DNA from: a virus
Strand: one strand, 5' to 3'
DNA length: 10,201 nt
UHGV virus genome: UHGV-1546769
How positions within the stretch are numbered: the stretch's first letter is position 1; every line of letters starts with the position of its first letter. Shown here in pieces: positions 1,320 to 5,659 of the stretch. Below the pieces are notes generated by a model. The model was not told the DNA's origin. It worked only from the letters and a program-made list of their open reading frames with translations, and did not search any database. The position numbers and the translations under genes were made by a program.

Positions 1320-1709
1320 TCAGGCGGCTGCACCCGCCGTTTTCTCGTACTTACTGATAGTGATCTCGACCTTCCCTTCCGGGATAACCGGCCCCCACTC
1401 CACCAGCATTCTTTTCACCTGGCTGTCGTCTTCCCACACCCCCGCGTGGGTCAGGGCGTCAAACAGCGCCTTGTTATAGTTGTCCAGATCGCGGATCCGG
1501 TTATCCGGAGGAAACAACACGATCTCCACTGAAGCAGGTGCCGACGTTGGTTTCGGCAGACGACGTAACTGCTCAACTATTGCTGCGCACGCCGCGCTCT
1601 GGAATTTTCGCCCCGCCTCGCTTATCAGGCTTTTACCTACAAACGCCCCTTTGTTGGGGTGTCGCCAGTACGTGTTCACGCTGGGCGGAAAAGGCAGTAT
1701 TAGCTTCAT
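1320..1709 (-). CDS. rusA: Crossover junction endodeoxyribonuclease RusA (Holliday junction resolvase)
   Basis: 129 aa. LPFPPSVNTYWRH near the N-terminus and the acidic motif RIRDLDNYNKALFDALTHAGVWEDDSQV match the RusA family (catalytic Asp cluster DLDN). The ATG at 1709..1707 overlaps the upstream TGA at 1708..1706 (ATGA), suggesting translational coupling. Confidence 0.9.
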   Translation of the reverse strand: MKLILPFPPSVNTYWRHPNKGAFVGKSLISEAGRKFQSAACAAIVEQLRRLPKPTSAPASVEIVLFPPDNRIRDLDNYNKALFDALTHAGVWEDDSQVKRMLVEWGPVIPEGKVEITISKYEKTAGAAA

Positions 1710-2034
1710 ACTTTCAGGCCCCTCTCATGTAACCAGTGAGTTGCACGCAGCCTTGCGTTTTCCTCACCGGCAAGCAGTGAGCGGATAATCCCGACCGCCT
1801 CGCTGTCGTCGTCCTTCACCGCGGTATGAAGCGTTATCCCCCGGGCCACACCACGCTTTATCGTGATGACGCCTTTTTTCTCCAGTGCGCGAAGATGCTC
1901 CACCGCTGCATTCACCGAACGGTATCCCAGCATGGTTGCCACCTCCTGATTGGTTGGCGGAAAGCCACGCTCTTGCTGGTAAGAAATCAGCATATCCAGC
2001 ACCTGCTGCTGGCATTGAGTTAACGTCGTCATGC
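1706..2034 (-). CDS. LexA N-terminal DNA-binding-domain protein (winged HTH only, no S24 peptidase domain)
   Basis: The C-terminal 108 aa of track ORF 1706..2263, MTTLTQCQQQVLDMLISYQQERGFPPTNQEVATMLGYRSVNAAVEHLRALEKKGVITIKRGVARGITL, follows the E. coli LexA N-terminal domain pattern (LTxRQQEV.D.I...GxPPTxxEIAxxLGFRSxNAAEEHLKALxRKGVIEI..GxSRGIRL) almost position for position. I chose the internal ATG at 2034..2032 because GGAG lies about 7 nt upstream; the 77 residues upstream in the track ORF are low-complexity and overlap the methyltransferase frame. Confidence 0.6.
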
Positions 2035-2669
2035 CGCCATCTCCCTGACAAGTTTTTCTGCCTGCTGGCGAACGCCTCACCACATGCCTCAAGTTCATCG
2101 CGCCCGATGTAGCTGATTGCCGGTCCCTTCCAGGTCTTGTCGAAAACAGCAATAGCACCAGCGAAGAAAGCGCCTGTCGGCACCTGCTTCTCATCCTTCG
2201 GGATAAACCAGGCAGGCAGTTCAAAACCAATACGCCCGCGAATAAAAGCAATATGGTCCGCATCTTCCGGCCACCACACTTCGCTGGTGGCCGCTTTGAT
2301 CAGGAAAACATAGCGCCCGCCCTTATCACGCATGGCACTGGCATGTTTCATGATGTAACGCATGCCGGTGATGTATTGCCCCTCATGCTGACTGGCGCGG
2401 CTGTATGGGGGATTACCAAAGGCAGCACCTTTAAGCTCCGCAAGACGTTCTGACCAGTCATGCGCCAGCGCGTTGTCTTCCGCCGTGTAATACGCGGCAC
2501 ATTTGGCGTTATCACCGTCAGTGAACAGATCCAGAACAAACGGACCAAACAAGGTGTTAATTCCCCAGAAAATGTTGTCCGGCGTGCGCCACTGATCGCC
2601 CACTTCCTTCAGTTCATGGGCTGGTTTGTTCCGCAGTTCTACCAGCGCCTGGCAATATTTATTACTCAT
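1764..2669 (-). CDS. Phage-type DNA N6-adenine methyltransferase (Dam-like), 3' end uncertain
   Basis: The N-terminal ~190 aa carry the GDQWRTPD motif and the catalytic FGNPPYSR (NPPY/DPPY) motif of N6-adenine methyltransferases. ATG at 2669..2667 follows a GGGGG stretch. The frame stays open to 1764, but the last ~90 aa are Gly/Arg-rich low complexity (GGGNHAGIPFGECSGGASSRTGEKRRHHDKAW...) and overlap the LexA-like gene in another frame, so the true C-terminus is doubtful. Confidence 0.75.
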   Translation of the reverse strand: MSNKYCQALVELRNKPAHELKEVGDQWRTPDNIFWGINTLFGPFVLDLFTDGDNAKCAAYYTAEDNALAHDWSERLAELKGAAFGNPPYSRASQHEGQYITGMRYIMKHASAMRDKGGRYVFLIKAATSEVWWPEDADHIAFIRGRIGFELPAWFIPKDEKQVPTGAFFAGAIAVFDKTWKGPAISYIGRDELEACGEAFASRQKNLSGRWRHDDVNSMPAAGAGYADFLPARAWLSANQSGGGNHAGIPFGECSGGASSRTGEKRRHHDKAWCGPGDNASYRGEGRRQRGGRDYPLTACR

Positions 2670-2761
2670 TAAGCCCCCACGTAAAAAGCATCCGCAATGT
2701 CTCCGGAAGTACAGCCCGGATGGGCTTCAATGAATTTCTGAACGTCATTTAACAGACTCAT
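2669..2761 (-). CDS. Candidate 30-aa small protein (not in the ORF track)
   Basis: Hand translation of the minus strand gives MSLLNDVQKFIEAHPGCTSGDIADAFYVGA*. Its ATG (2761..2759) lies 2 nt after the O-like stop TGA (2766..2764), and its TAA stop (2671..2669) overlaps the methyltransferase ATG (2669..2667) as TAATG. It fills the only gap between those two genes exactly. Confidence 0.3.
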   Translation of the reverse strand: MSLLNDVQKFIEAHPGCTSGDIADAFYVGA

Positions 2762-2763
2762 GA

Positions 2764-3756
2764 TCACCCCCTGAATCCTGCCGGGATCTGGCTGTAGTCC
2801 ACGTTGTCGTAACTGGCTTTGAAGTACGGGTCTTCACGTTTTTCTGTGTGCGTGCTGACGGACGGCGATAAGCGCAGGGAAAGCTCATCCCATTTTTCCC
2901 GCAACTTCGACGGGCTGAGCACGTTACGGCACCAGAACGGATCGCGGCTGACGCGGCTGTACATCTCGCAGATTTGTTTGTGAGTACGACCATCCTGCAC
3001 ACACATCAGGCGAATTTCGTTTGCCCATGCTGTCCAGTTCGGTTCTTTGGGACGAACCACCTCGCCGTCACATTCGGCGGCCTGCTCGTACAGGGCGATG
3101 ATTTTTTTCCAGAGCCACTGTGCGCAGGTCAAATCATCCTGCGTTCCCCACTGGCGCTTTTTAGGGCTGAATACAACCGCATCAGGATGGCGAGTTAAAA
3201 ACTCCTGTTCAGCCGTTTGCGTGTCCGGTTGCGAAGCGTCCGGACGAGAAGAGGTTTTATTCTCTGTAGTAATCTCTGTTGTATTCTCTGTAAGATCATT
3301 GGGCCATTTTGACCCGATGACAGCGTGTCGTTTTGAACCAATGGATCGTGTCATTTTGCGCCCATCCATCAGGTCACTTTGACCCGATGGAGAGGTGCAT
3401 TTTGACCTGATGGATTCGTTCACTTTGACCTCTTCTAAAAGCTCACTTTCATAGTTGATCGTGTAGAAGTTGGTCATGTCACGCTTCGATTTATTGAGTT
3501 GCTCGCGACGCAAAACCCCAAGTGATTTCAGGCTTGCAAATGTGCGTTTCAGAGTGGACTCTGACCAGAACGGAAACTGCTCCAGCCACTGTTCTGTCGT
3601 GTTATAAACCCAGCGAATTCCGCCATGCTCAGTGCCTGAATTCGTTTCATTCAGCCAGTAATGAAGCTGCTGCAACACAATTGCCTCATTCAGACCAATA
3701 CGGCATGCAAGATCACGATTTATCACAATGGGCTGGGATGTCATTAACAGGCTCAT
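2764..3756 (-). CDS. Replication initiator protein, lambda O-like, with the origin embedded in the gene
   Basis: 330 aa. It sits where O sits in lambdoid phages (after cro and a cII-like gene). The N-terminal region looks like a winged-helix DNA-binding domain, the central Thr/Glu/Asn-rich linker coincides with the iteron array and AT-rich repeats, and a separate C-terminal domain follows, which mirrors lambda O architecture. ATG at 3756..3754 with GAGG 6 nt upstream. Confidence 0.8.
   Translation of the reverse strand: MSLLMTSQPIVINRDLACRIGLNEAIVLQQLHYWLNETNSGTEHGGIRWVYNTTEQWLEQFPFWSESTLKRTFASLKSLGVLRREQLNKSKRDMTNFYTINYESELLEEVKVNESIRSKCTSPSGQSDLMDGRKMTRSIGSKRHAVIGSKWPNDLTENTTEITTENKTSSRPDASQPDTQTAEQEFLTRHPDAVVFSPKKRQWGTQDDLTCAQWLWKKIIALYEQAAECDGEVVRPKEPNWTAWANEIRLMCVQDGRTHKQICEMYSRVSRDPFWCRNVLSPSKLREKWDELSLRLSPSVSTHTEKREDPYFKASYDNVDYSQIPAGFRG
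3255..3300. repeat. AT-rich segment with three ATYCTCTGT repeats next to the iterons (candidate DNA unwinding element)
   Basis: Copies at 3259-3268 (attctctgta), 3272-3280 (atctctgtt) and 3283-3292 (attctctgta) in a locally AT-rich stretch. In the direction of O transcription it lies immediately after the iterons, as the AT-rich region does in lambda ori. Confidence 0.4.
3304..3432. repeat. Replication origin iterons: six direct repeats, consensus about tCAyTTTGACCCGATGG, period about 23 bp
   Basis: Repeats read directly at 3304-3320 (ccattttgacccgatga), 3327-3344 (gtcgttttgaaccaatgg), 3350-3367 (gtcattttgcgcccatcc), 3373-3390 (gtcactttgacccgatgg), 3396-3413 (tgcattttgacctgatgg) and 3419-3432 (ttcactttgacctc). 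They lie inside the O-like coding sequence with regular spacing of about two helical turns. Confidence 0.7.
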
Positions 3757-3925
3757 GACCGACCTCTATTTCCCTGAATTTACGACGAAACTGTTCGAGC
3801 GGACTGAAGCATTCATGTTCATAGCCTTCACGGAGGTAGATAACCCGTTGTGTTTCCGGCTCCCAACGAATGACTCTGACGGGCACTCCGTAGTGATCTT
3901 TGAACCAGCGGTTAACTTGTCGCAA
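3713..3925 (-). CDS. Hypothetical protein in an alternative frame (TTG start), overlapping the ORF at 3766-4104 and the first 14 codons of the O-like gene
   Basis: 70 aa ([70 protein letters not shown]) with globular-looking composition. The start is TTG at 3925..3923, preceded by GAAGGAGA with a 7-nt spacer. It cannot be cleanly reconciled with the overlapping ORF. Confidence 0.3.
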
Positions 3926-4104
3926 AGGACTGTCTCCTTCTGCCGGTTGAAATCACCCACAGCCCACTCTGCAAAGCTGTGGGTTACAATTTCCCTGTCA
4001 CCTGGTACATTCACTGCATAGCAATACTCCACCTTCGCTTTTCCACCCGGTACAGGAAGCGCAATCAGTTGCGAGCGACGGTAGTGTGTTGTTAAACTGT
4101 TCAT
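3766..4104 (-). CDS. Hypothetical protein, translationally coupled to the CII-like gene
   Basis: 112 aa. The ATG at 4104..4102 overlaps the upstream TGA at 4103..4101 (ATGA), with GGAG about 10 nt upstream. The N-terminal half ([28 protein letters not shown]) looks protein-like; the C-terminal half is Ser/Thr/Asn-rich and overlaps the better-looking 70-aa frame. Stop TAG at 3768..3766 lies 10 nt before the O-like start. Confidence 0.45.
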
Positions 4105-4685
4105 GCGTTAGTTTCTCCACAACCAGAAGCAATCGACGCCACGACGCCCGGAGCTGCACACTCGCGGGCGTTACTCTTTTCCGGCGCACAAAAAACACGA
4201 AATAACAGTGTTAAATGCTCCTGCCACTTCGCCATTACTTGGTAGCTGTTCTCTTCGATTTGCTCACGCTCAGCCTGGTCAATAACTCCATCAGCAGTTG
4301 CCTTGCGTAAGTACTGGGAATGCTTGCCAATCCATTCTATTGACTCCATCAGCCGCTGATTAATGTCACCATTGTCAATGTCATCAATGACCACCAGCGG
4401 CACAAACACCCCATTACTACGACGGGCTATTGCATCTGTTACATGCCTGGTACCACTGGCATCCTGTAAAACCATGGCCCACTCAAGTGGAAAAATTTGA
4501 TCCCCACCGCTACGCAGTCTGTTATGCAATTGATCTTTTGCTGGGGTGATATCATCAGATTTATACAAACCAAGAATTTCTGCTGCTTCCTCATAGCCAT
4601 GAGGTAAATCAGCAATCGTTCTTCGTATTGCTGCCACCAGCCATGCTGGTTGTTTATCAACTTTCCATTCAGGTTCTTTACCCAC
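4101..4685 (-). CDS. CII-like regulatory protein (YdaT-like: CII-type N-terminal region with a C-terminal extension)
   Basis: 194 aa, second gene after cro. The segment [42 protein letters not shown] resembles the lambda CII HTH region (AEAVGVDKSQISRWKRDWIPKFSMLLAVLEWG). The start is GTG at 4685..4683 with GAGGA about 8 nt upstream. The last ~25 aa are low complexity. Confidence 0.55.
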
Positions 4686-5005: not shown

Positions 5006-5659
5006 ATGATGAACATGAGTGATCGTATTCGCCAAAGGCGAAAAGAACTGAACCTGACACAACAAGCACTGGCTGATTTGACTGGTGTGAACCGTGTCAC
5101 GGTTACTGGATGGGAAAAGGACGACTACCAACCAAATGGAGCCAACCTTCAAGCCCTAGCCAACGCACTTAAATGCGATCCTCTGTGGCTTGTTAGCGGA
5201 AAAGGCTCGCCTGAACCAAAGATAAATCTAAAACCTGAAATATTCGCAGTTAAAAAAGTCCCCCTCATCTCGTGGGTTCAGGCGGGTTCATGGACAATGA
5301 CGGAGCCTGGTGTCAGGAAAGAAGATGCTGAAGAGTGGGTTTATACTACCGCCCTTGTATCAGAAATGGCATTTGCACTACGGGTCCGTGGTGATTCAAT
5401 GACCAATCCCCTCGGCTCACCATCGATACCAGAAGGTTCTATCGTTATCGTAGAGCCAGATATTATTGATACAGAGTGTATTAACGGAAAAATCGTTGTT
5501 GCCCATATCAATGGTGGGCAAGAAGCGACACTCAAAAAATTTGTTGAGGACTGGCCGAACAGGTATCTCGTCCCACTAAATCCTAACTATAAAACTATTG
5601 AATGCGGTGAGAACTGCAGAATAGTTGGTCTTGTCAAACAAGTAATAATGGATTTTTGA
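5006..5659 (+). CDS. Prophage CI-type repressor (N-terminal XRE-family HTH plus C-terminal S24 LexA-like autopeptidase domain)
   Basis: 217 aa. HTH region RRKELNLTQQALADLTGVNRVTVTGWE; candidate Ala-Gly autocleavage site in SWVQAGSW; S24 catalytic Ser motif VRGDSMTNP and Lys in ATLKKF. Three in-frame ATGs at 5006, 5009 and 5015 with only a weak AGGA upstream, as for leaderless or weakly initiated cI transcripts. Confidence 0.9.
   Translation: MMNMSDRIRQRRKELNLTQQALADLTGVNRVTVTGWEKDDYQPNGANLQALANALKCDPLWLVSGKGSPEPKINLKPEIFAVKKVPLISWVQAGSWTMTEPGVRKEDAEEWVYTTALVSEMAFALRVRGDSMTNPLGSPSIPEGSIVIVEPDIIDTECINGKIVVAHINGGQEATLKKFVEDWPNRYLVPLNPNYKTIECGENCRIVGLVKQVIMDF

Follow-up and report, generated by a model that had tools for sequence, protein, structure and literature searches.

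The long reading frame of a prophage Dam-family methyltransferase very probably reflects a 13-bp frameshifting deletion

Phage-encoded adenine methyltransferases and the gene in the window

M.EcoVT2Dam, the 175-amino-acid (aa) product of orf32 in phage VT2-Sakai, has been reported to be specific for GATC (PMC6602927, citing earlier cloning work). VT2-Sakai is a lambdoid Stx phage, and this orphan enzyme is encoded in its nin/early region. A different methyltransferase, M.EcoPA8orf6770P/M.EcoGV, is of the MT-A70 type and belongs to an Stx prophage. It methylates 16S rRNA when bound to PNB-2, and the authors of that study suggest that its C-terminal region may matter for partner binding (PMC10810198). 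Much closer to the gene considered here is WP_000066917.1 of Escherichia coli KGu016, a protein of 217 aa. It represents the phage N-6-adenine-methyltransferase found in E. coli lambdoid prophages and in Stx2a- and Stx2c-converting and related phages, for example, QIW91720.1 of phage Lys8385Vzw and WCJ00146.1 of phage phiSTEC1575-Stx2k.

We analyzed a 10,201-nucleotide stretch of the viral genome UHGV-1546769, here called the window. A program-made list of its open reading frames (ORFs) contains a frame of 301 aa on the minus strand, at 1764..2669. The Pfam model PF05869 (Dam) matched residues 18 to 198 of its translation with an E value of 2.6e-45, scoring 154.6 bits against a cutoff of 28.1 and covering profile positions 3 to 167 of 169. 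The NCBIfam equivalog TIGR01712 (phage_N6A_met) was matched over its entire length (positions 1 to 165 of 165) by residues 14 to 197, with 254.3 bits against a cutoff of 97.05. The protein contains GDQWRTPD at residues 24 to 31, with DQWRTP at 25 to 30, and GNPPYSR at residues 85 to 91, with NPPY at 86 to 89. In an alignment of 17 sequences from five genera, NPPY, which corresponds to motif IV, (D/N)PPY, and the W-x-TP motif (DQWRTP) were invariant. Judged by these matches, the Dam domain that defines the family is complete in the 301-aa product. A preliminary description of this DNA had reported the same ORF on the same strand, with both motifs, a tail, and an overlap with a LexA-like gene, all of which we recovered. 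Its outline of a catalytic core in roughly the first 190 codons, followed by about 300 nt without a stop, agrees well with a domain at residues 18 to 198 and a tail of 303 nt.

Similarly to the window protein, VT2-Sakai orf32 matched PF05869 (E value of 6.4e-65) and has both the NPPY motif IV and the W-x-TP motif, and both enzymes are orphans. However, M.EcoVT2Dam is shorter, ends with the catalytic domain, and is only 31% identical to the window protein over 144 aligned residues. Because identity is only 31%, its specificity is not transferable with certainty to the window enzyme, for which recognition of GATC is plausible. GATC sites were neither depleted nor enriched in the window (37 observed versus 40.5 expected). 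M.EcoGV resembles the window protein in being a prophage enzyme with a DNA adenine methyltransferase annotation. The two are set apart by family description: M.EcoGV is an MT-A70 enzyme (PMC10810198), whereas the window protein matched only PF05869 in Pfam. M.EcoGV serves as a caution that a "Dam" annotation in Stx phages is no guarantee of a DNA substrate.

None of the genes neighboring dam (O-like, PerC remnant, LexA-like, RusA, and KilA-N) matched a restriction-enzyme family. Likewise, no restriction enzyme was found in two annotated relatives (L132 and L133) across the region that covers the window up to about 9.3 kb. By this adjacency, the Dam-family enzyme is predicted to be an orphan (solitary) methyltransferase. 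The earlier call of an orphan Dam-type methyltransferase is thus supported both by PF05869/TIGR01712 membership and by neighbors without a restriction-enzyme family match. The anti-restriction or replication-timing function proposed along with it would be a candidate role.

The 13-bp deletion and the native C terminus

Many lambdoid phages and prophages of E. coli, Stx2a- and Stx2c-converting phages among them, are 96 to 98% identical to this region of the window at the DNA level. Codons 1 to 200 of the Dam ORF (2070..2669, minus strand), to which the Pfam and TIGR01712 matches belong, encode a sequence identical to that of WP_000066917.1 of E. coli KGu016 (200/200 residues). The two genes also occupy the same place in the operon, between the O-like gene and the LexA-like, RusA, and KilA-N genes. 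The proteins diverge after Phe200. WP_000066917.1 ends in ...AFLAQVRQQAEKLVREMAA*, and its TGA stop codon overlaps the LexA-like ATG as ATGA. In the window protein, the final 17 residues and the ATGA-coupled stop are missing, and 101 residues read out of frame take their place. In homologous phages, Dam has 217 aa and ends in ...GEAFLAQVRQQAEKLVREMAA*, with a 4-nt overlap with the LexA-like gene, and the RusA and KilA-N genes come next. The translation of one intact homologue (L001:2008-2661) ends in ...EKLVREMAA*.

It had been proposed to examine where the homologues terminate. From viral contigs carrying the intact 27-mer, 120 were taken, 108 of which were scorable at the 3' end. The Dam protein was exactly 217 aa long in 103 of these 108 contigs, and the ATGA stop/start overlap was present in 107. 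The next gene was LexA-like in 100 contigs and RusA directly in 7. In Salmonella relatives (88% aa identity), Dam is also 217 aa long, with RusA directly after it.

All 16 in-frame homologues, from E. coli, Salmonella, Cronobacter, Atlantibacter, and Enterobacter, kept AF[LIM][AS]Q[VI]R..A..L after Phe200. The native C-terminal helix (AFLAQ(I/V)R..AE.L, followed by a stop or a genus-specific extension) is not present in the window protein; the conserved segment (FLAQIRREAERL) has been lost from its product. The Pfam and TIGR models do not extend to this segment, so its loss leaves family membership untouched; it does mark the allele as damaged. Genuine C-terminal extensions were found in Cronobacter, Atlantibacter, Enterobacter, and some Salmonella, giving proteins of 285 to 416 aa. 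They come after the conserved helix AFLAQIRREAERL, and their sequence is unrelated to the window tail. Proteins of Cronobacter and Atlantibacter with 90% query coverage were considered as homologues of the tail and rejected, their extensions being real but unrelated and located C-terminal to the conserved helix.

The lesion was located by aligning the window with E. coli prophages and with phages in MAFFT and BLAST. The window lacks 13 bp that are present in all close homologues, and the junction lies at 2071..2074 (minus strand). On the coding strand, homologues read GCGTT[TCTGGCGCAGGTT]CGCC, and the window reads GCGTTCGCC. In codons, the closest relative (L132) has GAG GCG TTT CTG GCG CAG GTT CGC C, and the window has GAG GCG TTC GCC. 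The deletion hits Dam codons 200 to 204 and removes the final 17 residues from the frame. The closest relative carries the GCG allele and reads GCGTTTCTGGCGCAGGTTCGCC, in which a 3-nt GTT direct repeat flanks the deleted 13 nt. Owing to this GTT/GTT microhomology, the exact breakpoint is ambiguous within these bases. The GCC allele has no flanking direct repeat.

Since 13 equals 1 modulo 3, the Dam frame is left after Phe200 and the normal TGA is missed. The third frame of the window still spells out the ancestral ending ...QQAEKLVREMAA*. The TGA of this ending, now out of frame, lies at 2029..2031 (minus strand), where it overlaps the ATG at 2030-2032 as ATGA. Ribosomes would leave the Dam frame after Phe200 and bypass the TGA that overlaps the LexA-like ATG. 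Reading would then go on in the +1 frame, stop-free by chance, up to the TGA at 1764-1766, giving a product of 301 aa. RNA folding at the junction and at the LexA-like start gave z-scores of 0.03 and -0.23 against shuffled sequences, and no regulatory element was seen at either site.

The preliminary description had offered a lost stop codon, through an indel or a sequencing error, as one of two explanations. The comparison bears this out, with homologues of 217 aa whose TGA overlaps the next ATG and a window without their 13 bp. The lesion also falls inside the interval (2030-2110) that had been suggested for resequencing. With high confidence, we identify the gene as that of an ordinary orphan N6-adenine methyltransferase (217 aa) from a lambdoid E. 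coli prophage, altered by a 13-bp frameshifting deletion. Both the gene family and the gene are already known, and a lesion or an assembly error of this type is ordinary.

The out-of-frame tail, as delimited by frame comparison with the intact homologue L001, occupies 1764..2069 (minus strand) and consists of 101 codons (303 nt) after residue 200 plus the TGA stop. In sequence, it corresponds to the final 17 codons of Dam and most of the LexA-like gene, translated in the +1 frame. It is Gly/Ala/Arg-rich (Gly, 17%; Ala and Arg, 13% each; Ser, 9%), has a pI of 10.0, and overlaps the LexA-like gene, which is read in another frame, by 269 nt. It matched no Pfam family and no PHROG. From the frame comparison, we conclude that the last 101 residues of the predicted 301-aa product are +1-frame nonsense and not a real protein domain, and the tail is probably disordered or unstructured. 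AlphaFold returned mean pLDDT values of 35 for the 301-aa protein and 34.5 for the 217-aa wild type, using alignments of 16 to 17 sequences each, values too low for either model to be of use. By sequence, no significant relative of known structure was found in the PDB (best E value of 0.75).

Origin of the long reading frames

A long ORF could also be a selected architecture: Dam might have a functional C-terminal extension rich in Gly and Arg, or the +1 frame of Dam and the LexA-like gene might be a true overlapping gene. In intact phages, this frame has no stop codon over a stretch of 182 codons, which starts at Dam codon 124 and takes in almost all of the LexA-like gene; in Salmonella relatives, the open stretch measures 138 codons. 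Parts of the window tail also recur in about 20 database proteins, 274 to 324 aa long. However, a long ORF will result from every indel in the stop-free stretch that puts reading into the +1 frame, and the long variants enter the tail at different codons via different lesions. A cluster of 22 sequences at 90% identity contained forms of 274, 301, 305, and 324 aa, to which parts of the tail were common. The frameshifted alleles P0008 (301 aa), P0003/P0009 (305 aa), and P0031 (274 aa) and the 324-aa forms use the same +1 frame as the window and largely the same Gly/Arg-rich tail, ending in ...DYPLTACR. Their lesions are at other codons, and the junction of the window is unique. A 1-nt deletion at codon 178 was present in 11 contigs, named E. 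coli strains among them, and another 13-bp deletion, at codons 189 to 193, was present in two SRA runs. The 324-aa forms need a second shift, at an A6 run, to regain the LexA frame. The other long variants (274 to 324 aa) are thus independent lesions and not a conserved architecture.

The substitution pattern between E. coli and Salmonella also argues against selection on the long frame. Codons with a synonymous change in the Dam frame were at least as frequent inside the overlap (38/95) as outside it (36/122). In the overlapped part, 42 of 53 nucleotide differences fell at Dam third positions, and the +1 translation was 52% identical, compared with 91% for Dam. No purifying selection on the +1 frame and no sign of dual coding were thus seen in this comparison, and an overlapping +1-frame gene is rejected on this pattern. 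Some genera do have real C-terminal extensions on Dam, as described above, but these are unrelated and follow the very helix that the window has lost. Moreover, the tail matches no family, and the LexA-like gene is absent from the Salmonella relatives. We consider a selected architecture to be extremely improbable. The genuine long overlapping arrangement that had been proposed as the other explanation is rejected, as the allele is a singleton, the other long forms are different indels, and the +1 frame is not under purifying selection. Genuine overlap is limited to the ancestral 4-nt ATGA.

The rarity of the allele bears on whether the deletion is real. In 5,426 complete E. coli genomes, an 80-nt query spanning the junction was matched over its full length 854 times. 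Every match had the 13 additional bp, with a span of 93 nt and 86% identity, and the deletion junction was seen in none. A 24-nt junction sequence had no exact match in genome_contigs, viral_contigs, or metagenome_contigs, and the intact local sequence was present in at least 120 viral contigs. The exact 301-aa protein was found on one contig only, the ENA metagenome scaffold COST17-1_SAMEA4545295_METAG-scaffold_2797 (12,650 bp). The cluster of the 217-aa protein has 3,007 members.

An allele recorded once, on a metagenome scaffold, and found in none of the other collections searched is what a metagenome assembly or consensus error might produce, in which case the organism would carry the normal 217-aa gene. 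E. coli strains often have several related copies of the module, in up to 4 places per genome, and these can confuse assemblers. However, the contig is otherwise clean. Over 7.7 kb aligned to E. coli KGu016 at 98.5% identity, it shows just one further indel, which is intergenic and 1 nt long, so errors are not widespread in this contig. In addition, the loss of 13 nt between 3-nt direct repeats is typical of replication slippage and unlike a homopolymer-type error. Comparable frameshift alleles are real and have been sequenced repeatedly, also from isolates, as seen for the other 13-bp deletion, in two SRA runs, and the 1-nt deletion, in 11 contigs. Assembly error is a possible but rather doubtful explanation, and we regard the deletion as more likely to be a real mutation. 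Slippage at the GTT...GTT microhomology in a resident prophage may have generated it. Whether the deletion is real or an artifact, the tail does not belong to the protein by design.

Neighboring genes, annotation, and possible consequences

The gene order is cro-like, YmfL-like, O-like with iterons, PerC remnant, Dam, LexA-like, RusA, and KilA-N. The Dam gene is part of the rightward early operon, downstream of the cro-like, YmfL-like, and O-like genes, and the gene for a CI-type S24 repressor (5006..5659) is on the opposite strand. Directly after Dam, the LexA-like gene (1706..2032, minus strand) is intact and encodes 108 aa. The protein matched PF01726 (E value of 2.7e-19) and contains the LexA DNA-binding domain only, without an S24 peptidase domain. 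It is identical to WP_000210187.1 at 106 of 108 residues, and its true start is the ATG at 2032. A Shine-Dalgarno-like AGGGAG, 8 nt upstream of this ATG, is intact. The gene for the RusA Holliday-junction resolvase follows at 1320..1709 (minus strand; PF05866, E value of 4.8e-15), in ATGA overlap with the LexA-like stop.

Upstream of Dam, a 30-aa remnant of a PerC/YfdN gene lies at 2669..2761 (minus strand), and its TAA overlaps the Dam ATG by 1 nt. It comprises the first 26 residues plus YVGA* and differs from the gene in phages Lys8385Vzw and phiSTEC1575-Stx2k by a 396-bp in-frame deletion. The same remnant is common to many E. coli prophages, where RefSeq labels it a pseudogene. The O-like gene (2764..3756, minus strand) contains five tandem direct repeats of about 23 bp at 3297-3412, with the core CAYTTTGACCYGATG and a spacing of 23 to 24 bp. 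By their arrangement, these look like origin iterons inside a replication-initiator gene, as in lambda O. A single A at position 7483 of the window, shortly before the start of yfdR (5'-deoxynucleotidase), is not present in E. coli KGu016. Because of this extra base, the ORF at 7435..8034 is N-terminally longer than the annotated yfdR.

The boundaries of the tightly overlapped PerC-Dam-LexA-like operon are repeatedly broken or fused in databases. In a public protein collection, in-frame PerC-Dam fusions of 380 to 382 aa occur in up to 28 contigs, and in-frame Dam-LexA-like fusions of 292 and 324 aa also occur. In Salmonella prophages (L124-L127), which have PerC, Dam, and RusA but no LexA-like gene, the stop codon of Dam overlaps the start codon of RusA. 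Of the 108 E. coli-type viral contigs, 7 also lack the LexA-like gene. In view of its absence from the Salmonella relatives, this gene behaves like a module that can be inserted between Dam and RusA. The gene calls on the source metagenome scaffold (L003), at 3001-3906 and 3961-4350, omit the intact 108-aa LexA-like gene; it is uncalled because the frameshifted 301-aa ORF covers it. The phage records PP925833, NC_049941, and PP925821, among others, label the Dam gene as "phosphoadenosine phosphosulfate reductase." The PHROG family phrog_33262 has 495 positions, of which the Dam domain matches 283-489, and the mislabel likely stems from this family, whose name describes its other half. In the window, an ORF at 8025..8903 (plus strand) sits where relatives annotate a gene of the PAPS-reductase family.

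The catalytic capacity of the 301-aa product may survive, since the Pfam/TIGR domain is complete and the 175-aa M.EcoVT2Dam ends with the same domain, although the helix shared by five genera is gone and a basic tail has been added. Stop/start coupling to the LexA-like gene would be lost because ribosomes would now read through the LexA-like start in the wrong frame. That the deletion is real and a Dam-tail fusion is expressed with consequences for the prophage seems very unlikely. If this were nevertheless true, wrong-frame read-through could lower or uncouple the expression of the small, repressor-like LexA-like protein, and the basic tail could alter the DNA binding or the stability of the Dam enzyme. 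On the same unlikely reading, the unusually long open +1 frame might repeatedly supply the phage module with new protein variants.

The finding opens no new biological question, and its main value lies in annotation. A gene caller that takes the 301-aa ORF at face value outputs a long methyltransferase that is spurious and, on the source contig, also loses the intact LexA-like gene beneath it. Once the lesion is recognized, the standard picture returns, namely, a 217-aa orphan Dam-family enzyme that is translationally coupled to a LexA-like protein and RusA. It should be noted that a +1-shifting indel anywhere in the stop-free stretch, which takes in the last approximately 95 Dam codons, leads to a long chimeric protein. 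A chance stop-free alternative frame thereby turns small indels into domain-like long tails that recur in databases.
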